From a virus (taxonomy: Duplodnaviria; Heunggongvirae; Uroviricota; Caudoviricetes), in the IMG/VR virus record IMGVR_UViG_3300029567_000333, positions 1-22,230 of that record: a DNA stretch of 22,230 nucleotides, one strand, 5' to 3'. Position numbers and translations under genes: made by a program. Positions 2,871-13,014 of this stretch are shown in pieces. The notes beneath the pieces are model-generated. The model was given only the letters and a program-made list of their open reading frames with translations, did no database searches and was not told where the DNA came from. Within the stretch, counting starts at the first letter, position 1. Every line of letters starts with the position of its first letter.

Positions 2871-3840
2871 TTGGGGGATTTAGTGAAGCATCGACATTTA
2901 CCTTAAAGTAAACCCGCGTAGGTGATGCCTTTTGCCATTGCATTACATAAGATGGATATGGCGGCATGTAATTAACGTTATCGTAAACAGTGAACGTTGT
3001 ATTACCATTCATATTGGCGCCGGGGTTATAAGTATTGAATATTGACTCGGCAACATCCGTATCAGCCCCGCCATAAACACAAATATAAACAGAATGCGCA
3101 AGAATCGGGAAATTCGTTGTTCCTTTATTTACTGTTTCTGCAGTTCTGTTTGACCATACGTAAGCATCAAGCACACCATCAGTCGCAAGTAACGCTGCTA
3201 ATGTAGATGCGTCCTGATTTCGACTGTTTCTGGCAACTGATTGTCTCCGGCGAGTTTCAAAGGCGATACGTGATTCAACATCAACACCAACGACTCCAGG
3301 GCTAATATTATTTACAGCATCCCACCCGGAAACGGCTCGATAAATCTGGTTCAGTGAACCGGCGGCACACGGAATCGGCCCGGTTGTTGTGTTGACAAAC
3401 TGCACATCAACAGAGCCTGATGAGGGTATTACAGCATTATCAATTGACTGATATATATACCCGCTCGTATCCACAGCGGTACTCCCTGCTGGTATTGTTG
3501 TTCCAACCTGACCAATGCATGTTGCTGTAACAACTGTCCCCTGAGCAGCGATCCGCTCCATAAAGTAAATCCGACCAATCCCGTCCTGGAATCTGCCAGT
3601 TGAGAAGTCAGGGTTAATTTGATTAAACAAACAAAGAAGTTTGTCGTATTCCTGAGCAATAATTTCAGTGTCAGACTGTGCGATCTGCCCTTGCGGTGAA
3701 CTCAGTGATTGACTAGCACCACCGCCAAGAGCCGTTGACATGTCTGTAAGTCTTCCCGCCAGCACATCCGCTATGTCGGGAACTGAAAGACCGTTTTCAG
3801 TGATGGTTACATCAGGAACAGCCGTATTTAATATCGTCAT
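2818..3840 (-). CDS. baseplate J-like protein
   Basis: 340 aa. Follows a W-like small protein and precedes the fibre genes. Start overlaps the upstream stop (ATGA). Assigned from size and gene order. Confidence 0.55.
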   Translation of the reverse strand: MTILNTAVPDVTITENGLSVPDIADVLAGRLTDMSTALGGGASQSLSSPQGQIAQSDTEIIAQEYDKLLCLFNQINPDFSTGRFQDGIGRIYFMERIAAQGTVVTATCIGQVGTTIPAGSTAVDTSGYIYQSIDNAVIPSSGSVDVQFVNTTTGPIPCAAGSLNQIYRAVSGWDAVNNISPGVVGVDVESRIAFETRRRQSVARNSRNQDASTLAALLATDGVLDAYVWSNRTAETVNKGTTNFPILAHSVYICVYGGADTDVAESIFNTYNPGANMNGNTTFTVYDNVNYMPPYPSYVMQWQKASPTRVYFKVNVDASLNPPSDITKQGNDCHCVQWRV

Positions 3841-4196
3841 AAGGTGGCCTGTGCAATATTACCATTGATATCTGTAACGCGGATTGTGCCGCGAGTTGTG
3901 CGTGTATTCTTGTCAAAGAAAACTGATGCCAGAGCATCCTCAACGACGGGTAATTTGAGTGCTTCAGCCTGCATTTTCTGAGCAATAAAACCAGGAGATG
4001 GTCGCCTGCCAAGAACTTCTGCCTTCCATGGGATCCCAAGTGTATTGTCGTAATAACACTCTCCTGAAAACACCAGGCACGCACTGGCGACATCCTGAGC
4101 AACAGAATATGATTCTTCTGCGATCGCCAGATTGCCATTTCCGTCAAGCGTCAAGTCCCACGTAGAAGTGTCCAGTTGCATAGTTCTGTATGTCAT
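3837..4196 (-). CDS. small baseplate protein (gpW/gp25-like by position)
   Basis: 119 aa, translationally coupled on both sides (ATGA overlaps). Sits between the spike-like and J-like genes. Confidence 0.45.
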   Translation of the reverse strand: MTYRTMQLDTSTWDLTLDGNGNLAIAEESYSVAQDVASACLVFSGECYYDNTLGIPWKAEVLGRRPSPGFIAQKMQAEALKLPVVEDALASVFFDKNTRTTRGTIRVTDINGNIAQATL

Positions 4197-4885
4197 GTCG
4201 GTTTATCCGTTGCATTGGAATTTATTGTTGACCCACCACTTTGTACTCCTGAAACAGAATGTTTGTGATTGTTATAGTTGTCCCTTAAATTTTTAACAGT
4301 AGATGACTGTGAACTTGCGTTATCCTGAATATCACCGCTAACTTTAAGTAAAGGAGTATTCATGTTGACCCCATTAGGAGCATCAATATTTAACGATGAA
4401 CATTTAATATTTAGTGGGTTAGGTGTGGTTATGTTTATTGCACCATCAGCAAATTCAATGAATTGAGTAGGTGCAATATTTAATACCCCACCAAGATAAA
4501 TTGCATCAGATTTACTGTGTCGCCTTTTGCTTCCAGGTACTGATTCTTTACGATTTTTTCTTACCAGTGATGTGTCTTTGTCGCAGACAGCAATCAGACC
4601 AATATCACCTGCCACAGGGTCCATAATTACAGCACTGTTGCCTCTCTGCAACCGCCATACAGGAATATCATATAAAACCGAGTTAGAAATCATTTTTCCT
4701 GTACGGTCTGTTCTGGTTAGTAAAGGAAGAGCGTCAACAACTAAATCCGGTGCTTCCCCCCTGACTTCATGAACTATCGCTAACTCAATGAAGAAATATC
4801 CAGACATCATCATCTCAAAAATATATTCCTGAGATTGAGCCTCACTTACCTGAGCAGTCGTTGGAGTAAATAGTTGCTTATCCAT
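4193..4885 (-). CDS. baseplate spike / gpV-like protein (start moved to the internal ATG at 4885)
   Basis: The ORF-track N-terminus overlaps the upstream gene by 100 nt. The internal ATG (MDKQLF...) overlaps the upstream stop by only 8 nt. Contains VWRLQRGNSAVIMDPVAGDIGLIAV, reminiscent of spike proteins. Confidence 0.45.
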   Translation of the reverse strand: MDKQLFTPTTAQVSEAQSQEYIFEMMMSGYFFIELAIVHEVRGEAPDLVVDALPLLTRTDRTGKMISNSVLYDIPVWRLQRGNSAVIMDPVAGDIGLIAVCDKDTSLVRKNRKESVPGSKRRHSKSDAIYLGGVLNIAPTQFIEFADGAINITTPNPLNIKCSSLNIDAPNGVNMNTPLLKVSGDIQDNASSQSSTVKNLRDNYNNHKHSVSGVQSGGSTINSNATDKPT

Positions 4886-5759
4886 TATTCTGTTGCGCCT
4901 CTGCTCTTTGTTCCGCTGTTCTGGCGGCAATACATATTGAGTGCCATGAACCATTTGGCATCCATGATGATAATTCATGCCGAACGGAGGTTAACTTATA
5001 CCTTCCGCTTGCATGTGGTAGTTCTGTTTTGATATCCACATATCTTCCAATGCAAAGGAGAGATGAATATTGCGACTGAAACATCAGTCCCCCATTTGAA
5101 AATACAGGATATCCAACAAGTCCGTATTCTCTGGATATAAACGGAATTACATCGTCTCTGTTTTTTTCTGAAGGCCAGAACTCTACTTTTGTCGGTGGCG
5201 TGGCTGACATCGCAAGTCCATAATCTGAACAGACCCTATAAAGTTGTTCAAAAACACTTCCTTCAAAATGCGGACTTCCTGATGTTGTCATCCCTTTTAC
5301 ATTATTAAACACAGCCTCATAACCTGCACTTGCACAAATGGATGAGATGACATCTTCAACACTTTGCGCACCCTGCGCTGTAAACGGACTTGCTGGCATG
5401 TTCTGTAAATCAACATTAGAAGAGGCTGTTATCATCAAACTGCTTTCAGGAGCAGAATTCATGTTTGCTATTGATGAAAGCATCGTGCCGGAGAAAACAA
5501 GAGAATCATCAGCAAATACCTCAACATTTAACTTCTGACCTTCCCCAACAATACCATCAGCCTTCCCTGATATATCAGCAAGTCTTTCAATTCCTAAGCC
5601 GTAAAGAGATATATCAGCCTGAGCACCTCCCCGACCGGTAACAAAGTTCAGGGATACTGTTGACTTAACATTTCTGATGGAGATTTTATTGTTTCCATTT
5701 TTATCAAATGCTGATGATTCATTCGTGAAGTCAAACCGAAGACTGTGATTTTTATACAA
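4878..5759 (-). CDS. baseplate protein, probably initiating at TTG 5759
   Basis: No in-frame ATG or GTG follows the upstream stop until codon about 128. A TTG at 5759-5757 has a GAGGAA Shine-Dalgarno 8 nt upstream and overlaps the upstream TAA. The sequence before it in this frame (MDLRETLFSLITMGSRTRNGKAW...) does not look protein-like. Alternative ATG starts at 5831 or 5867 cannot be excluded. Confidence 0.4.
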   Translation of the reverse strand: MYKNHSLRFDFTNESSAFDKNGNNKISIRNVKSTVSLNFVTGRGGAQADISLYGLGIERLADISGKADGIVGEGQKLNVEVFADDSLVFSGTMLSSIANMNSAPESSLMITASSNVDLQNMPASPFTAQGAQSVEDVISSICASAGYEAVFNNVKGMTTSGSPHFEGSVFEQLYRVCSDYGLAMSATPPTKVEFWPSEKNRDDVIPFISREYGLVGYPVFSNGGLMFQSQYSSLLCIGRYVDIKTELPHASGRYKLTSVRHELSSWMPNGSWHSICIAARTAEQRAEAQQNNG

Positions 5760-6054: not shown

Positions 6055-6866
6055 GTGCTCGCCTTAACTATATTTTTTGCAATATCTGCCGCTTTTTTTG
6101 TTGCGCTGTTTGTAACTTCGAGTATTGGTTTGGACACCGTATCAAGAGCACTCTGAAATTCAGTCTTGATTGTGTCGGAGATTTTTCCAGTGATGTCGCC
6201 AACAGATGACTTCAGTGATGACCATGATTTACTTAGCTCATCGACAGTAGATTCCCTGGCTCCGCCATTGGTTATTTGCGGATCAACTCCTACATCTCCC
6301 TGTGACTTATTGTTATCCGTTGGCTTCTGTTCTGACTGAGATCCAGAGAGGATAACCTCCATTTGCTGAATGACCTCCTGAAAATCAAGATAAACCGTCA
6401 GAAGAGTCACCCCTTTTTGAGAGTTAACTTCGTAATAGTGGTCAACAAGGTCGAAACTCTCCAGAGTTTCCTTTGGCGTTTCAATATCGTATGTTTTTGC
6501 AGAGGACAGCATCGTTTTGATTGTGTTCAGCGTGCTGTTCTGGCTTGTGAATGTGAGATCGAAAATATTCGGGATATTGCCGGAAAAACCAGTAAGACCA
6601 TTTACGATGATTGCGCATCTTACTCTGGCTGGTTCTTTAACTTTGTTGATGGACTGGTATTTCCCTTTCTCCACCGGAGCATTTGTTATTTGCGCCCTTC
6701 CGCTTGGCTGTACGGATGCCATACCACTGAACTCAAGAGCAACCTCGCCAGTTTCCCTGTCACGAATCACATACTGGGGATGCAGAACGCTGTCGATGAT
6801 CGAAAGCGGAGAGCCACCACCGATAGCATTGAATATGTCTGCTGTGTTTAAATCGATTATGCTCAT
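6051..6866 (-). CDS. tail protein, first gene after the accessory island
   Basis: 271 aa. GGAGAG Shine-Dalgarno before the ATG at 6866. Begins 12 nt 3' of a terminator hairpin. Confidence 0.5.
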   Translation of the reverse strand: MSIIDLNTADIFNAIGGGSPLSIIDSVLHPQYVIRDRETGEVALEFSGMASVQPSGRAQITNAPVEKGKYQSINKVKEPARVRCAIIVNGLTGFSGNIPNIFDLTFTSQNSTLNTIKTMLSSAKTYDIETPKETLESFDLVDHYYEVNSQKGVTLLTVYLDFQEVIQQMEVILSGSQSEQKPTDNNKSQGDVGVDPQITNGGARESTVDELSKSWSSLKSSVGDITGKISDTIKTEFQSALDTVSKPILEVTNSATKKAADIAKNIVKAST

Positions 6867-6884: not shown

Positions 6885-6906
6885 AAACCCAGTCGAAGCT
6901 GGGTTT
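6885..6906 (-). terminator. rho-independent terminator, minus strand
   Basis: AAACCCAG / CTGGGTTT stem with a 6-nt loop. On the minus strand it is followed by TTTTTGTTT. Lies just 3' of the 73-aa gene. Confidence 0.6.
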
Positions 6907-6916
6907 AGTGAATTGG

Positions 6917-7138
6917 CTAGTTATCAAAAAGTCCGTACGTTTCTTCTTCTTCAGGAGTAAGGGGAAGAATCTCAATTCTATCTATAGATACCTTTTCAAT
7001 GTACCCATGAGGTCTGCTTAAAATTAAAGCTCTCTCATGCCACAAAACACCAAGAATGTGATATCTCCCAGCATCGCCTTTTACCCTGGCTCTTCCTTTG
7101 ATTCTTGGCGGCATAATGCCATATTTTTTCTTTGCCAT
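6917..7138 (-). CDS. hypothetical small basic protein (73 aa)
   Basis: Start ATG shares a base with the upstream TAA (TAATG), suggesting translational coupling. No family recognised. Confidence 0.45.
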   Translation of the reverse strand: MAKKKYGIMPPRIKGRARVKGDAGRYHILGVLWHERALILSRPHGYIEKVSIDRIEILPLTPEEEETYGLFDN

Positions 7139-7866
7139 TATGCAACATTACTCCCATGAACCAGGTGTTGTAGTGCTTTAACACCTTCCGCATTGTAGCG
7201 GAATGCTTCCACCTGTTTGCTGGAATGCGCAGATTTATCCAGGAAGAACTTCCCGTACTGCTCAGTTTTGAGGTTGTTTGCGTTAGCAATGCGACCAATC
7301 TTGTTGGCCGTTACTCCAAGCTGCTCTGCAACCTCCCCTGCTGAGTAGTAATGCTCTTCTATTGCTGGAAGAGGTATTGCATTAAAACCAACGATCGGGT
7401 TGATTATGCTTGCTGCCGCAGTCTGCTTTGCTTCCGGCGCAAGATTTGGCATCAAATCGAACAGATTGGTAACAGCTTCAACCGTCATTTTCAATGTTCG
7501 CGCCTGGCGATACTCAACAAGTCCACTAGACGATTTACCGCTTTTAATGTGCGCTTCTTGCATACTTTCAAGTTGGTCTACAAGTGAGCGGCGAACAGCT
7601 TTAGATTCACGAGCAGCCACTCGAAGGGCTTGCTTAATTGACATAACAACTTTTTCAGAAGTTGTCTTGTTTGATTTTTGAACTACGAAAATTTCGTAGT
7701 GCTCACCTTCAAGTTCATCCTTAATGCGTGCAATAAAGTCGTTATTGCGGACTTCTTTTTCCCCGCACTGTCTACGAGCATGATTGACCATCTCTAACAG
7801 GTACTGGCTATCAATGGTTTTATCCGTGACAACGGATCCGATGTTTGCTACATTCTTAAAAGTCAT
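7138..7866 (-). CDS. putative phage regulatory protein (possibly antirepressor-like)
   Basis: 242 aa from the internal ATG at 7866, which has an AAGGA Shine-Dalgarno 7 nt upstream. The longer ORF-track N-terminus would run through a terminator hairpin. Only a weak resemblance to the N-terminal region of phage Rha/antirepressor-type regulators (TIDSQYLLEMVNHARRQCGEKEVRNNDFIARIKDEL); the call rests mainly on position directly downstream of ant. Confidence 0.4.
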   Translation of the reverse strand: MTFKNVANIGSVVTDKTIDSQYLLEMVNHARRQCGEKEVRNNDFIARIKDELEGEHYEIFVVQKSNKTTSEKVVMSIKQALRVAARESKAVRRSLVDQLESMQEAHIKSGKSSSGLVEYRQARTLKMTVEAVTNLFDLMPNLAPEAKQTAAASIINPIVGFNAIPLPAIEEHYYSAGEVAEQLGVTANKIGRIANANNLKTEQYGKFFLDKSAHSSKQVEAFRYNAEGVKALQHLVHGSNVA

Positions 7867-7904
7867 TAGGCATTCCTTATGTGGTAGTAAGGGTGTGACA
7901 TAGG

Positions 7905-7933
7905 CCGCCAGCTGCACACTGGCGGTTTTTTTT
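7905..7933 (+). terminator. rho-independent terminator oriented on the plus strand
   Basis: CCGCCAG-ctgcaca-CTGGCGG (7-bp stem, 7-nt loop) followed by eight T (7926-7933). On the minus strand the hairpin is followed by CCUAUG, not a U-run. Sits between ant and the next minus-strand gene. Confidence 0.6.
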
Positions 7934-7950
7934 CACCACCAGATGCGTCA

Positions 7951-8967
7951 TTAATACAGATGAACAGAAGGCGGTAATTCTTTATTCTTAAGCCTTATCC
8001 ATGCAGAAAGATTTGTTGGTCCGTCTGGCTCATTGATATCAACATCTCGTGTGTGGTTGATTAAAACGTCTCTCGCCGTTCCGATAACATACGAGAACTC
8101 ATGACCGTAGTCGTAGCATCTGCCGGAATAGTTCGATTGAATTTGTTTTAATGCCGGATACAGTTCGCGGAATAATGCCTGTGAGCGGTTGGCATAATCC
8201 CATAACCATACAAGGCTGTTTGCTTCTTTTGCGGAAAGCTCGTTGGTGCTCTTCTCTTGTTTGCTAATGAACTCACCTTCAAGTGGAACTCGAGCTGCAA
8301 GTGACAGTGCTTCGGTAAACTGCTCCTCACTGATTTCTTTGTACGAACATCCAAAATGGGATTTCAGTGACGACCACATGGTGATCATCGCCTTCGCCTG
8401 TTTTTCTTTTGGCAGAGACTGACCGCGACTCATGACAAGTTGTTTAATGGCTTCCTGCTGTTCAGTGGTGATTTTGCCCGGCAACGCCTTTTTAGCTTTG
8501 CGCGGGTTAACCACATGGCCTTTAGTCCAGTAGTCATGCAGCACAGTAAAGCATTCTTCCTGGTACTGAATCAGTTTATCGCGGATGTCAGCACGAACTT
8601 TCTCAGGGTTGATGCTGAACAGCCATCCATTTAACTTCTTCAAAGGAAGGCAGAGTAGCTTACGAAGCTTCCCATCAGCAGCAACCATATTCATATGAAT
8701 ACAGTTGAACTTATCTAGTTGTTTCATAAGTTTTTGTTGCTGAGTACCCCAGCTCATTCCGAGGTTTTCAACGATTGGCTTCATCGCAACATATGCAACT
8801 CCTGCAGCCATGGCGGTGATAATTTGCTGACCGTTGAAGGGTACGTAAGAGGTGTTCACTGCTTCTAAAATTGCTATACTATTCATATCAGTTTTCTCGT
8901 AGTTAACTGGTAATTTAGAAGCCTCAATGGTTGCAGCCATTGGGGCTTCGCTGTTTTTAGCGACCAT
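7951..8967 (-). CDS. ant: antirepressor (Ant-like)
   Basis: N-terminal region ([37 protein letters not shown]...[16 protein letters not shown]) has the shape of phage antirepressor N-terminal domains. Lies directly 3' of an Arc-like gene and divergent from an Mnt-like gene, as in P22 immI. ATG at 8967 has a GAGGTGG Shine-Dalgarno and overlaps the arc-like stop by 11 nt. A start at 8886 is also possible. Confidence 0.65.
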
Positions 8968-9130
8968 TCGCCACCTCTTCCCTAACACCTTTTGCCAGCA
9001 AACGAACAATTGCAGAGTTCAGAGATATACAGTCCATTTCCGCCAGGCGGCGAAGGTCTTCATTCAGCCGTGATGGAAGGCGAAGGTTGAGTTTGATATT
9101 TTTGCGCTCAGTGAAAAGTGTATCTTGCAT
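8957..9130 (-). CDS. arc: Arc-like ribbon-helix-helix repressor (57 aa, missed by the ORF track)
   Basis: Translation [57 protein letters not shown] has the beta-strand plus two helices layout of the Arc/MetJ family. AAGGAG Shine-Dalgarno 9 nt before the ATG at 9130. Confidence 0.7.
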
Positions 9131-9236
9131 TATCTAATCTCCTTTATTTGGTGCCAAAGTGACGCCATGAAGGCCATAATGCCACCATTGAAATCGTATG
9201 GCAATATGGCACCATGGTTTTTTTGAGAGATTTGCA
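9131..9236. promoter_or_regulatory. divergent promoter/operator region between the arc-ant and mnt-like genes
   Basis: Minus strand: TTGCCA (9204-9199), 17-nt spacer, CATTAT (9181-9176). Plus strand: CATAAT at 9175-9180, so the two -10 hexamers overlap. Dense GCCAT/ATGGC and GGTGCCA/TGGCACC inverted motifs are candidate operator half-sites. Confidence 0.45.
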
Positions 9237-9557
9237 ATGGCCGAAAAACAAGTAAAAGACTACGACAAGTTCAACCTCCGTTTTCCTGACGGAATGCGAG
9301 ATGCTATAGCTGAACGAGCTAAACGTAACGGCAGATCAATGAACTCAGAGATTGTGCAGATACTGGAAGATGCCTTGAATGCAGAAAATACTCTTGGGGA
9401 AATAGCAGACAAAATCAACAGCGTCTCGGTTCCGCTAAATGTTGATGCGCTAGTTCAACTTCAAGCCCAGGTTATCGCCATGCAAAAAGAAATACAGGAA
9501 AAGTTCAGAGAGCAAAACGAAAAGTTAAGAGAACTGCTAAACAAAAAACCCACCTGA
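9237..9557 (+). CDS. mnt: Mnt-like ribbon-helix-helix repressor
   Basis: FNLRFPDGMRDAIAERAKRNGRSMNSEIVQILEDAL closely matches the Mnt/Arc DNA-binding region as I recall it (FNFRMP...EANGRSMNSELLQIVQDAL in P22 Mnt). C-terminal half is heptad-like and coiled-coil-prone. Start taken at the ATG at 9237 (GAGAGA Shine-Dalgarno); the longer N-terminus from 9198 has none. Confidence 0.85.
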   Translation: MAEKQVKDYDKFNLRFPDGMRDAIAERAKRNGRSMNSEIVQILEDALNAENTLGEIADKINSVSVPLNVDALVQLQAQVIAMQKEIQEKFREQNEKLRELLNKKPT

Positions 9558-9570
9558 CGGTGGGTTTTTC
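9543..9570. terminator. bidirectional rho-independent terminator between convergent genes
   Basis: A-run (9543-9548), CCCACC-tgac-GGTGGG stem-loop, then TTTTT (9565-9569). The mnt-like stop TGA lies in the loop, and the convergent minus-strand gene ends at 9571. Confidence 0.75.
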
Positions 9571-10563
9571 TTATTCTTTATCTTTTAAGTCGATGGTTCT
9601 TTGTCCAATAACCTTTTCATCTATGTATTTCTCATACTCTTCTCGAGTATCAGAAACCATTGCAATACCAGTAACCTTACCTATTTGGGTTCTAAGAGCT
9701 TTAACTCCAACCTCTGATAAAAACTGGTGTATTTTATCGTTTTTGCTGCCTTTCTCTTCTTTTGACGTTTTTGCTAAATTAAATACCTTTCCTTCACTTC
9801 TGGCTAATGGGTAGTAAATGTGATCTATCGTAAGATATTTAAACGCCCACGGTCGCCCTCTAACTGGTTTGTCTATACCATACAGACGATACCAATGCTC
9901 ATAAAGTTCAGGGGTGAACTCTCTTTCATACTCACGAGCCTCTTCAGCAACATATCGCTTATATGCTTGAATTACTTCTTCTTTTGTTCTGTCATACCCT
10001 GCCAAAGCATAAACAAGCCCCTGAATTCCCGCCTTGGCTGATGCATCAATAATTATCCTGGCTTGCTTAGCAATCCCTTCCTGACTAGAAAGCAACTTAC
10101 CTTCAGCTTTAGCGTTAGAGATTGCTCGACATAAATCAATTAAGATTGTTACATCGTAGCCATGTATTACAGGGTTAGCTGGTGTGTTCGTGCCCACCTG
10201 TTTGTATTGAAAAATAAGAGGATTTTCAAGTTTTGCCCTTAATTCATGCCCGATATACTGAGAAATAGTTTTCCCCTGAATAAACTTTGGCAACCTGCTG
10301 CCACCTTCGCCAAGACCAATCGCTTCTCCCATGCCTCTCTGGCTAATAACGGCAGTTTTGTTATCATCATTTAACACATAGCACTCAACATCAATCCCGA
10401 ATTCATGCTGGAACGATCCCTTATGCGTAGCAATTAATGGTTTATCCTTCCATCTTGCAGCCGCTGCTTTCTTTGCTATTTCAGAACGCTGCTCTTTAGT
10501 CAGCGACTTTGCGCGAGCGATTCCGCCCTTAGCTTTCCCTTCACCACTTTTCTTTTCAGTCAT
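9571..10563 (-). CDS. hypothetical protein, possibly P63C-domain-like; function unknown
   Basis: 330 aa from the ATG at 10563, which has an AAGGTG Shine-Dalgarno 8 nt upstream. Basic N-terminus (KKSGEGKAKGGIARAKSLTKEQRSEIAKKAAAARWK). The gene is visibly more AT-rich than the structural genes. The P63C resemblance is from memory and unverified. Confidence 0.45.
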   Translation of the reverse strand: MTEKKSGEGKAKGGIARAKSLTKEQRSEIAKKAAAARWKDKPLIATHKGSFQHEFGIDVECYVLNDDNKTAVISQRGMGEAIGLGEGGSRLPKFIQGKTISQYIGHELRAKLENPLIFQYKQVGTNTPANPVIHGYDVTILIDLCRAISNAKAEGKLLSSQEGIAKQARIIIDASAKAGIQGLVYALAGYDRTKEEVIQAYKRYVAEEAREYEREFTPELYEHWYRLYGIDKPVRGRPWAFKYLTIDHIYYPLARSEGKVFNLAKTSKEEKGSKNDKIHQFLSEVGVKALRTQIGKVTGIAMVSDTREEYEKYIDEKVIGQRTIDLKDKE

Positions 10564-10564
10564 A

Positions 10565-10654
10565 ATGCAAGCACCTTTGCTGTGATATATGCTTGCATTA
10601 TATGCACTGTACCCACATACAAGCAAGCATAAAACAAAAGCAAAATGCTTGCAT
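10565..10654. promoter_or_regulatory. array of four 10-bp near-palindromes ATGC(W)(W)GCAT with a putative promoter
   Basis: ATGCAAGCAc at 10565-10574, ATGCTTGCAT at 10589-10598, aaGCAAGCAT at 10621-10630, ATGCTTGCAT at 10645-10654, giving two units of inverted half-sites 24 bp apart. On the minus strand a perfect TATAAT (10602-10597) with a weak TTGCTT -35 lies among them, and the repeats overlap the -35, the transcription start and the Shine-Dalgarno. Confidence 0.55.
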
Positions 10655-10771
10655 TGCAACCGCACTACTCCAACTACACAGTATCATCTGGTATCCTGCG
10701 TAAAACCGAGTGTTGCGTGCTTTTGCTTAAGTTAACGGATACAAACATAGGAAACGTTACAAGGGGAAAGA

Positions 10772-11230
10772 ATGAAATCCAGATTTTTCACAATAGCAAT
10801 ATTTTCTTCCGTTCTTCTATCACTCGCAGCTTATGCTGCATCCGACAAAGATAAGGAAAAAATGATGTCTTTAATAAAAGATGCTTCTCCTTATGTTGCA
10901 GGCATGGGCAAAAGCATTGATGAAGTTTGTCAGGATATGGCTAACGACATGGTAAAAAAGTATGGAAATCAACTTAGTGCTATTGGCAAGTCACCGTCAG
11001 ATATACGAGATTCATCGTATGGTATATGCTTTGACGCTGCATCTTCAGCATCATTATCGCAATCCATAGAAGAAGTAAGCATGTGGAAAAATGCAGCAAT
11101 GCAAAACATTAACGCCACATTCCGAGGCGAGAATGAGCAATCTCCCGCGCGAAAATTTCTCGTTGAGACAATTGATCACTCTGAGAAAATGGCAAAAACA
11201 ATTGCATTCATGCGGGAAATTAGTCAATAG
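10772..11230 (+). CDS. small secreted (periplasmic) protein of unknown function
   Basis: N-terminal signal peptide (MKSR, hydrophobic core FFTIAIFSSVLLSLAA, AYA-AS cleavage motif) with no lipobox cysteine. Two Cys in the mature part. AAGGGGA Shine-Dalgarno. AT-rich. Converges on the tape measure gene with an 8-nt gap. Confidence 0.65.
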   Translation: MKSRFFTIAIFSSVLLSLAAYAASDKDKEKMMSLIKDASPYVAGMGKSIDEVCQDMANDMVKKYGNQLSAIGKSPSDIRDSSYGICFDAASSASLSQSIEEVSMWKNAAMQNINATFRGENEQSPARKFLVETIDHSEKMAKTIAFMREISQ

Positions 11231-11238
11231 CAAATCTG

Positions 11239-13014
11239 CTAAGGCACTGCACTTGAAAATGCCTGATTTACTGATGATCTGCGATTCAACTCCTTAAATC
11301 CTTCGGTTAGTTTTGAGGATTGATCCGTTTTGGCAATTACCTTTACCTCTCCTATGTGCTGGCTGTTGTAATTGTTAACAACGCTTTGGGTATAGGATTG
11401 ATTTGCAGATCCATTAGCCAATCTTTGCTGAGTTTGGTAGTAAGCGGCATTGCTATTTTTCGTTGGGTTACCATAATCAAGACCCCGCTTCCAATCTGGA
11501 TAACCTTCATGCCTAGCCATATAGGCGCTAAGTTTTGCCATAACCTCTGGATCTGAGAGGTTTAGCTTATCATTGGCACCAACGCCCATAGACTTAGAAA
11601 CCTGGTCAATATACGCCTTTGTGTTGTTTTCTGAGGATGGTGCCCACTTGCTTATTATTCCTTGCAACGTATCAAGCTTATCTCTTTTGTAGTATAGAGT
11701 CAGTTGATTCCTGGCGGCCTCCCAACCCTCTTCTGGGTCGAAGTATTGAGCAAATCCGTCTTTGTCTCTTCTTCTGTTTCCAGTAGCTTTAAGATTTAAT
11801 GGGTTATTGTTTCTGTCAGGCCTGTTGACACCATTTTTGTTAGGAGGAATCTCTTTATTTGGATCGTCATAATCCAGCCCAATGAGCCTTTCAAGCCAAT
11901 GCTGCTGAAATGCGAATGGCCGCATCTCATCAGGAACATCTTTATACTGGTCTTGTACCATCTGCCCAAAAATACCAACAGCACCGATTAATCCCAGCTT
12001 GCTTCCTAACCCCTTGCCGCTAAGAAGAGCCATGGCAGCAAGAATGCCCAATGCGTTTCCAGCGCCACCAACGGCTTTAACAAAACCATCAATACCTGTA
12101 CTCAGGTTCCTGAAGAACCCAACAATGTCACCCTTGTTGTTTTTCAGCCACTCTAAAAACTCCTGTTCAGCTTTAAGCACTTCAGGGCCAAATGTAGCCA
12201 TTAATTCTTGTTTAACCTGAGCAAATTGCGAGTCAAGGGCTTTAGTCGTAGCAAGAATGTTGCGCTGTGCTTCTTCCTGCTCTTTGGTCATCTGCCATCG
12301 TTTTTCTTCCTCAGATACCATCTGCACAGCTTTTCCGCTTTTAATATCCCCGGCAAGATTAGGGTCATAACCAAAAGCAGAAAGCACTTGCATTAACTGT
12401 TTCTCGTTATGGTTCTTCCCATATTTCTGAAATTCCGCCAGAGCATCTTCTGATTTACCTCCAAGCTTACTAATATCAATGCCTGTTCTCGCTCCAGTTG
12501 TTAGTAAATTCTGAGCCTCCGGTGTAAGTCCGCCGAAAATTGTTGGGTCTTCTATATTGGCAAGCGCCATCCTGGCGCTCATCTGTGCCCCAAGGAACGC
12601 GCCGCCGTTCTGACCAATTCGGGAGAATCCATACTGAGTACCAAGAACGTTACTGGCGCTTGTTCCAAGCATTCTCCCCATATTACTGGCTCTTACAATT
12701 GACTCCGAAGTACTTTCAAATGCACGATGAATGCCAATGGCTACGGCAGTCAACACACCGCCAACAGCCACAAAGCGTGTCGAAAGCCCCAAAAAACCAT
12801 TAAATGAAGCAGTCAACCCTTTCATTGCAACAGCAGCTTTGTCGGTCTCCTTAGCCGTTTTGGACATCGAGGAGGTTGTTGACCTTTCTATCGCAGATGA
12901 AGATCTCTCTATTTCGTTTTTAAGGTCTTGTGCTTCCTGCTTTACTTTCCGTTTTCCATTCAGGAATTCATCGGCCTTAATTGTGACCTTGTAGGCCAAC
13001 TCATTGATAATCAT
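11239..13014 (-). CDS. tail tape measure protein
   Basis: 591 aa, directly downstream of the chaperone pair. Gly/Ala-rich hydrophobic segments (AVGGVLTAVAIGI, GGAGNALGILAAMALLSGKGLGSKLGLIGAVGIFG) and a charged coiled-coil-like stretch. C-terminal region (NNNPLNLKATG...YFDPEEGWEAARNQL...) looks like a separate globular domain of unknown identity. Confidence 0.7.
   Translation of the reverse strand: MIINELAYKVTIKADEFLNGKRKVKQEAQDLKNEIERSSSAIERSTTSSMSKTAKETDKAAVAMKGLTASFNGFLGLSTRFVAVGGVLTAVAIGIHRAFESTSESIVRASNMGRMLGTSASNVLGTQYGFSRIGQNGGAFLGAQMSARMALANIEDPTIFGGLTPEAQNLLTTGARTGIDISKLGGKSEDALAEFQKYGKNHNEKQLMQVLSAFGYDPNLAGDIKSGKAVQMVSEEEKRWQMTKEQEEAQRNILATTKALDSQFAQVKQELMATFGPEVLKAEQEFLEWLKNNKGDIVGFFRNLSTGIDGFVKAVGGAGNALGILAAMALLSGKGLGSKLGLIGAVGIFGQMVQDQYKDVPDEMRPFAFQQHWLERLIGLDYDDPNKEIPPNKNGVNRPDRNNNPLNLKATGNRRRDKDGFAQYFDPEEGWEAARNQLTLYYKRDKLDTLQGIISKWAPSSENNTKAYIDQVSKSMGVGANDKLNLSDPEVMAKLSAYMARHEGYPDWKRGLDYGNPTKNSNAAYYQTQQRLANGSANQSYTQSVVNNYNSQHIGEVKVIAKTDQSSKLTEGFKELNRRSSVNQAFSSAVP

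Follow-up and report, generated by a model that had tools for sequence, protein, structure and literature searches.

What do the two genes that follow the antirepressor gene ant encode in the virus DNA analyzed here (positions 1 to 22,230 of the IMG/VR record IMGVR_UViG_3300029567_000333, Caudoviricetes; this whole stretch of 22,230 nucleotides is referred to as the window)? An initial annotation, made from the letters of the window, had described two co-oriented and translationally coupled genes behind ant, for proteins of 242 and 73 amino acids (aa), and had suggested that they form a toxin-antitoxin, exclusion or anti-defence pair. The two genes, their overlap and the hairpin that closes the pair were all found where they had been placed. 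The 242-aa gene lies on the minus strand at 7138..7866 (start codon ATG at 7866-7864, Shine-Dalgarno (SD) sequence AAGGAA at 7878-7873, stop codon TAA at 7140-7138); this ATG is the start in every homologue, and the mechanical open reading frame (ORF) extends to a GTG at 7917. The 73-aa gene follows on the same strand at 6917..7138 (ATG at 7138-7136, stop codon at 6919-6917). The two ORFs have one A in common in a TAATG stop/start overlap (7136..7140, minus strand), which by its sequence is a translational coupling and which is also the exact edge of the 242-aa gene module. The reading towards which we lean is that a second antirepressor-class regulator stands behind ant, gated by its own predicted antisense RNA, and that the 73-aa gene is a separable passenger.

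The 242-aa protein aligned over its full length with phrog_1726, a family annotated as 'anti-repressor' (residues 1-242 on profile positions 1-264 of 264, E 6.3e-100), so that the resemblance to antirepressors reported in the initial annotation was borne out but can hardly be called weak. Homologues were found in 2102 clusters (90% identity) across Enterobacterales. The protein comprises an N domain of the P1/P7 Ant type (residues 13-118), a helical linker (89-159) and a MerR-like winged-helix C domain (176-237). The counterpart of the N domain in P7 Ant1 is residues 111-219 (59-63% identity); in tblastn comparisons with phages, residues 14-106 were 63.5% identical to P7 Ant1/Ant2 and 59% identical to P1, in agreement with BLASTP, and hhalign of the N domain with P7 Ant1 gave a probability of 99.9% (E 1.8e-34). 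In the annotation of the P7 record, Ant1/Ant2 antagonize C1 repression. Going by these sequence matches, the 242-aa protein is most likely an antirepressor-class regulator, and we infer that it has an antirepressor activity and a target for it. Pfam runs on all members of both protein alignments yielded weak HTH_17 matches only for the 242-aa family, and no KilA-N, Bro-N, Rha or KilAC model of Pfam matched the 242-aa protein itself. NCBIfam and PADLOC gave nothing significant for it, only weak hits (mad1, E 0.004; SP_VI, E 0.018), and a search of PDB sequences with the 242-aa and 73-aa profiles returned nothing meaningful.

Two observations on the 242-aa gene stand apart from its classification. 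A near-perfect palindrome, CTACGAAAATTTCGTAG, with 8-bp arms and a central A, lies inside the gene at 7683-7699 (residues EHYEIFVV) and is confined to one allele class. The stretch of about 40 bp around it recurs in some 280 E. coli genomes (95-100% identity), in unannotated gaps of other prophages adjoining DNA-ejection genes, where the flanking sequences look like decayed fragments of the N domain of the 242-aa protein.

A candidate regulatory element lies on the opposite strand at the 5' end of the 242-aa gene. A consensus scan located a candidate promoter on the plus strand at 7826..7854, within codons 5-14 of the gene (-35 hexamer GTGACA, 17-nt spacer, TG-extended -10 element TACATT), and an intrinsic terminator, a hairpin followed by T8, was located on the same strand at 7902..7928, in the gap between ant and the 242-aa gene, with no T run on the sense strand. 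The conserved candidate promoter together with the covarying terminator upstream of the ribosome binding site (RBS) predicts an RNA of about 75 nt (~7861..7935, plus strand), complementary to the start codon (7864-7866) and the SD sequence (7873-7878). This would repeat on the 242-aa gene the design of sar on ant in P22, in which an opposite-strand promoter lies in the first codons of the target and a terminator in the gap upstream of its RBS. In 15 lineages with 42-100% protein identity, GTGACA and TGnTAnAnT were invariant and at fixed spacing, including 5/5 third-codon positions, whereas the third-codon positions between and upstream of the promoter elements were 33-87% identical and the spacer varied. 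In the terminator helix 97.4% of the cells were paired, compensatory changes were seen at 4/9 pairs, and the pairing score was reached by none of 500 shuffles and exceeded that of all slid controls. The fold energy of the predicted RNA was -25.1 kcal/mol (z -2.4).

A covariance model, R1, built from 17 sequences, scored 71.4 bits at 7861-7935 and found nine further sites outside its training set, as well as the site in Klebsiella phage phiKp_30; all of them lay at the 5' ends of homologues of the 242-aa gene, and the homologues at the further sites carry a different N domain. The GTGACA promoter geometry was present in 6/9 of these sites (L060, L062, L067, L068, L070 and its like), with a different, TTGAC-type hexamer in place of GTGACA in the Proteus and Providencia loci and in L075. 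Altogether the same geometry, with the terminator just upstream of the RBS, was observed in at least 26 loci. By these alignments the element is conserved across genera beyond what the coding sequence requires, and a predicted disorder of residues 1-14 of the protein fits with codons constrained by a promoter. The 'Roi' homologue of the lambdoid E. coli prophage PhiR12_3 has neither the antisense promoter nor the terminator. No Rfam family was matched at 7861-7935, and the predicted RNA differs from sar of P22 in giving no match to the sar model (RF00262) there at E up to 1. RNAalifold supported the terminator helix only, with no conserved 5' hairpin in the predicted RNA, and a literature search for antisense RNAs on antirepressor genes of the 242-aa family returned nothing specific.

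How these parts would work together can be proposed from the layout. On the sense strand no promoter-like site belongs to the 242-aa gene itself and no terminator follows ant, so the gene is probably co-transcribed with arc and ant; it would be read from the Arc/Mnt-controlled ant promoter, with late read-through in addition. The antisense RNA, whose existence and action we infer from the conserved motifs, would start at the promoter in codons 5-14 and stop at the hairpin just upstream of the RBS, and by blocking the RBS it would keep the 242-aa protein off when it is not to be made. The TAATG overlap fuses the 73-aa gene to the 3' end of the module, so synthesis of the 73-aa protein should depend on translation of the 242-aa gene, and through this coupling the antisense RNA would lower the translation of the 73-aa gene as well. 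The 242-aa protein itself would most likely serve as a further antirepressor or regulator, its target differing from that of Ant.

Whether the two genes belong together was examined through their distribution. In all 41 IMG/VR loci that have the 73-aa gene, the 242-aa gene stood directly upstream with the same TAATG overlap, and the same was true of JEP4, a P22-like phage and the one deposited phage in which the 73-aa gene occurs, and of E. coli EC16. Among 5426 complete E. coli genomes, the 73-aa gene was present in 54 and a near-full-length close copy of the 242-aa gene in 76; in the 12 listed of the 54, the 73-aa gene adjoined a second annotated gene in every case (12/12). None of 38 loci from other species with a 242-aa homologue had a coupled 73-like ORF downstream, and phiKp_30 encodes a 242-aa protein 99% identical to that of the window and lacks the 73-aa gene; its nucleotide identity with the window (97%) begins at 7933 and ends exactly at 7138, at the stop codon of the 242-aa gene. 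The linkage is one-way: known copies of the 73-aa gene are always behind the 242-aa gene, and the reverse does not hold. The tight coupling claimed in the initial annotation was thus upheld in the TAATG overlap and in the constant company that the 73-aa gene keeps, but the genes are not an obligate pair, since most of the 242-aa family does without the 73-aa gene; conservation of the small ORF with its partner, on which the annotation had made its proposal depend, was found in one direction only. One IMG/VR locus (L030, 2541047757_000009, positions 3538-5000) has an insertion of about 1.4 kb in the 242-aa gene, with the 73-aa gene intact downstream.

The 73-aa protein matched phrog_4977, a family of unassigned function (E 5e-54), and gave no match of any kind in Pfam, NCBIfam or PADLOC; searches of BFVD and of PDB sequences added nothing. 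We agree with the initial annotation that no known function can be given to the gene. Among 44 copies, 15 of 23 variable nucleotide sites were synonymous only (one of these 15 in the stop codon) and the replacements were mostly conservative; by this pattern the ORF is a real gene under purifying selection, and on sequence evidence neither of the two ORFs is a chance reading frame, both being real genes. Exhaustive HMMER and profile searches retrieved remote relatives with 30-47% identity in Serratia, Klebsiella, Salmonella, Citrobacter, Pseudomonas and Vibrio, which have the motif KYGxMP...A.[VI][KR]GD.G.Y.[VI].G.DW in common; the family amounts to 42 clusters. These remote homologues stand alone in early or accessory phage operons and on plasmid-like contigs with varying neighbors, and when a consistent neighbor was sought among the distant homologues none was found; a KilA-N or ORF6N regulator gene was near the remote homologue in 2 of about 8 contexts. 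Two Salmonella loci with plasmid-like gene content (L087/L088) carry at 4001-4213 a homologue of 70 aa (P0158), and its neighbors are TIR and SLATT defence-type genes, RelB/YafQ, Hha and a ProQ/FinO-like gene.

A confident AlphaFold model of the 73-aa protein (pLDDT 88) has the five-stranded barrel topology of the SH3-like small beta-barrels, with a flexible basic N-terminal tail that holds the conserved KYGxMP and an acidic C-terminal helix. Its likeness to known barrels of this kind (Tudor, KOW, retroviral integrase C-terminal domain) is at the level of the fold only, with 5-18% identity, and no family-level or functional link to them was found. Judged from the model, the protein probably binds a nucleic acid or protein partner, and any activity assigned to it would be conjecture of this sort. 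The gene also has an A-rich run, AAAGAAAAAA, at 7122-7130 (codons 3-5); in several database variants of the protein (P0123, P0124, P0126), residues 4-19 are in another frame before the sequence returns in frame, which may reflect either errors in sequencing or genuine slippage on the homopolymer.

Several explanations of the pair have to be set against this evidence. A toxin-antitoxin, abortive-infection or exclusion cassette, as proposed in the initial annotation, would suit a compact, coupled two-gene unit in a hypervariable prophage cargo site, and the remote 73-aa homologues near TIR, SLATT and RelB/YafQ genes on plasmid-like Salmonella contigs point the same way. An obligate toxin-antitoxin or two-component system is nevertheless unlikely because the 242-aa gene occurs without the 73-aa gene and distant 73-aa relatives stand alone, both proteins being found singly in many elements. 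No toxin, antitoxin or defence model of PADLOC, Pfam or NCBIfam was matched significantly, the larger protein belongs to the class of antirepressor-type regulators rather than to any known toxin fold, and the folds are a winged helix and an SH3-like barrel. A toxin-antitoxin or defence interpretation is therefore largely not supported; we consider it very improbable, and if the favored reading is right, the pair is a poor toxin-antitoxin or defence candidate and a false lead is removed. A milder form of partnership is a two-protein unit in which the SH3-like protein binds the 242-aa regulator and modulates it, whether as chaperone, inhibitor or specificity subunit, while the coupling sets their stoichiometry. 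The unvarying position of the 73-aa gene behind the 242-aa gene, with the same TAATG in the 41 loci, JEP4 and EC16, and beside a second annotated gene in the listed E. coli genomes, speaks for such a unit, as do the higher conservation of the 73-aa gene (97-100%) than of its neighbor (86-99%) and the two distant homologues that also adjoin KilA-N or ORF6N regulator genes. The phiKp_30 protein, which is partnerless and whose nucleotide identity stops at the stop codon, the 38 loci of other species and the unrelated genes beside most distant 73-aa homologues all speak against it, and we regard it as rather unlikely.

It is also conceivable, if somewhat doubtful, that the 73-aa protein works early and on its own, as an accessory factor that has no functional relation to the 242-aa regulator and simply borrows the expression signals of its gene; it might, for instance, attach to a host protein or nucleic acid in an anti-defence or host-takeover role. 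The occurrence of remote homologues in early or accessory operons, which belong to phages and plasmid-like elements from Serratia, Klebsiella, Salmonella, Citrobacter, Vibrio and Pseudomonas, the conserved KYGxMP in a flexible basic tail opposite an acidic C-terminus, and a module edge placed exactly at the start codon of the 73-aa gene would all agree with this, but the protein has no similarity in sequence or fold to characterized anti-defence proteins, and its family is small. We find it more probable that the 73-aa protein is an accessory passenger than that it is an obligate partner. A bolder extension, to which we give little credence, is a new kind of anti-immunity module with two layers, in which the antisense-gated antirepressor co-delivers the KYGxMP SH3-like protein as an effector against a target of the host or of a competitor phage (for example a defence system or a repressor-stabilizing factor) and in which the antisense element stands for a hitherto undescribed RNA family that is widespread in Enterobacterales and gates antirepressor genes as a class.

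The favored reading, an antisense-gated second antirepressor-class regulator with a separable passenger, has its own difficulties, and the following points weigh against it. The 242-aa protein has no Pfam match, and KilAC (PF03374), which P7 Ant1 matches at E 4e-31, was absent from it and from 20 relatives even at E up to 5. The names 'Anti-repressor', 'KilA' and 'Roi' are transferred names for this subfamily. A proposed link to Roi of HK022 was rejected, with nothing noteworthy in tblastn (E up to 10) and an hhalign probability of 0.2%; to our knowledge, HK022 Roi is the only Roi-named member with published genetics. The name 'Roi' therefore gives no functional evidence, HK022 Roi not being detectably related to the 242-aa protein. 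The protein has the appearance of a DNA binder, so it might act as a transcription factor and not as a repressor-binder. The case for the predicted antisense RNA is built only from consensus motifs and conservation, and the strict linkage in E. coli and Salmonella (44/44), along with the coupling, might point to two genes that work as partners and not to a passenger.

Were the favored reading true, immI-type anti-immunity regions could hold antirepressor units in tandem, with a separate sar-like antisense gate for each, and the gate (the promoter in the first 14 codons and the upstream terminator) would travel with the gene family despite swaps of the N domain. It would offer a concrete and cheaply testable case of a regulatory RNA constraining a coding sequence, and possibly a new Rfam family. 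The immI-type anti-immunity region is known as a type of system; what would be new is the sar-like antisense gate conserved at a second gene of the antirepressor class, together with an uncharacterized family of SH3-like small proteins of mobile elements, which may merit screening.

Comparison with known systems shows both likenesses and departures. The 242-aa cassette resembles immI of P22 in that a P22-type ant, accompanied by Arc-like and Mnt-like genes and by a sar-like RNA, immediately precedes it, but the 242-aa protein has no sequence similarity to P22 Ant, nor to the adjoining P22-type Ant of the window. With Ant of P1 and P7 it has the N domain in common, whereas the KilAC domain at the C-terminus of those proteins differs from its MerR-like C domain. 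The immI region of P1 (c4 RNA, icd, ant) is likewise controlled by an antisense RNA and coupled to a 73-aa ORF, a control that is predicted in the case described here; that ORF is icd, which lies upstream of ant, whereas the 73-aa gene lies downstream, and c4 is by its record annotation a co-directional processed RNA, whereas the predicted RNA would be a cis-antisense transcript. P1 Icd itself was rejected as a relative of the 73-aa protein, as no match was obtained on comparison. Phage regulators of the KilA-N/Bro-N/Rha type reportedly shuffle their DNA-binding domains, as Iyer, Koonin and Aravind are said to have pointed out in 2002, and the 242-aa family resembles them in swapping N domains while keeping the C domain and the 5' regulatory head. 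Among prophages of the Stx and lambdoid types, the 'Roi'-annotated protein of PhiR12_3 is 62% identical over the full length, and for Stx phages the order Ant, then Roi (242 aa), is on record (PMC3430580). The 'Roi' of LF82 Gally was set aside as a source of transcripts, the gene being in the nin region beside a different, 96-aa ORF.

The ant gene directly upstream (7951..9009, minus strand; phrog_245) carries both P22_AR_N (PF10547, E 1.6e-44) and P22_AR_C (PF10548, E 8e-30), with start candidates at 8967, 8940 and 8886. Antisense to its start region, on the plus strand at 8886..8952, there is a full-length match to the sar family (Rfam RF00262) that is sub-threshold (28.6 bits, E 0.007, where the gathering score is 43) and that contains a 14-bp terminator hairpin on the same strand (8918-8949); the match suggests that the true start of ant is near 8886 rather than at the TTG at 9009. 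An Arc-like gene (8957-9130, minus strand; PF03869, E 1.4e-4) and a Mnt/Arc-like gene (9198-9557, plus strand; PF03869, E 2.1e-20) follow, with divergent promoter-like sites between them at 9129-9204, so that upstream of the pair the window has the composition of P22 immI, an Ant with both P22_AR domains and divergent repressor genes of the Arc/Mnt ribbon-helix-helix type. The Mnt-like gene is flanked by a gene for a P63C-domain protein of phrog_2384, a family of unassigned function (9571-10665, minus strand), and by a 152-aa ORF (10772-11230, plus strand) with no match in Pfam, NCBIfam or PADLOC.

By its gene content the window is a myovirus-type prophage: Pfam detected baseplate plug and spike domains among its proteins, and the annotation of a near-identical E. 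coli prophage includes baseplate J, DUF2612 and transglycosylase SLT-domain proteins. The immI-like block (6917-11230), which holds the 152-aa ORF, the P63C gene, the Mnt-like and Arc-like genes, ant and the 242-aa and 73-aa genes, interrupts the tail operon between a match to the SLT-domain protein (11239-13014) and the baseplate genes, whereas in a P22-like podovirus immI occupies the gap between genes 16 and 9. On the downstream side the block is closed by the terminator-like hairpin 3' of the 73-aa gene (6885..6906, minus strand; 8-bp stem, then TTGTTT). The next tail/baseplate gene, in the same orientation, starts at 6866, 19 nt past this hairpin, so late transcription must cross the terminator or restart after it.

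The segment 7933-6896 recurs in JEP4 with 88% nucleotide identity, where the pair sits not behind ant but behind an antirepressor-type gene that is annotated as Rha and has Bro-N and P22_AR_C domains; by this comparison it is a mosaic, mobile module, also present in the ant moron of that phage, which bears out the placement of the pair in a prophage cargo site by the initial annotation. In P22-like phages the 'ant moron' is a documented hypervariable region with extra genes of unassigned function in rapid flux (PMC2629481), and on sequence comparison the region described here appears to be a tandem extension of such an immI-type ant moron, and thus ordinary cargo of a known variable phage region. 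The near-identical prophage of E. coli EC16 has a LexA-family gene and a Panacea-domain gene in the slot instead, which makes the immI-like slot a cargo hotspot.

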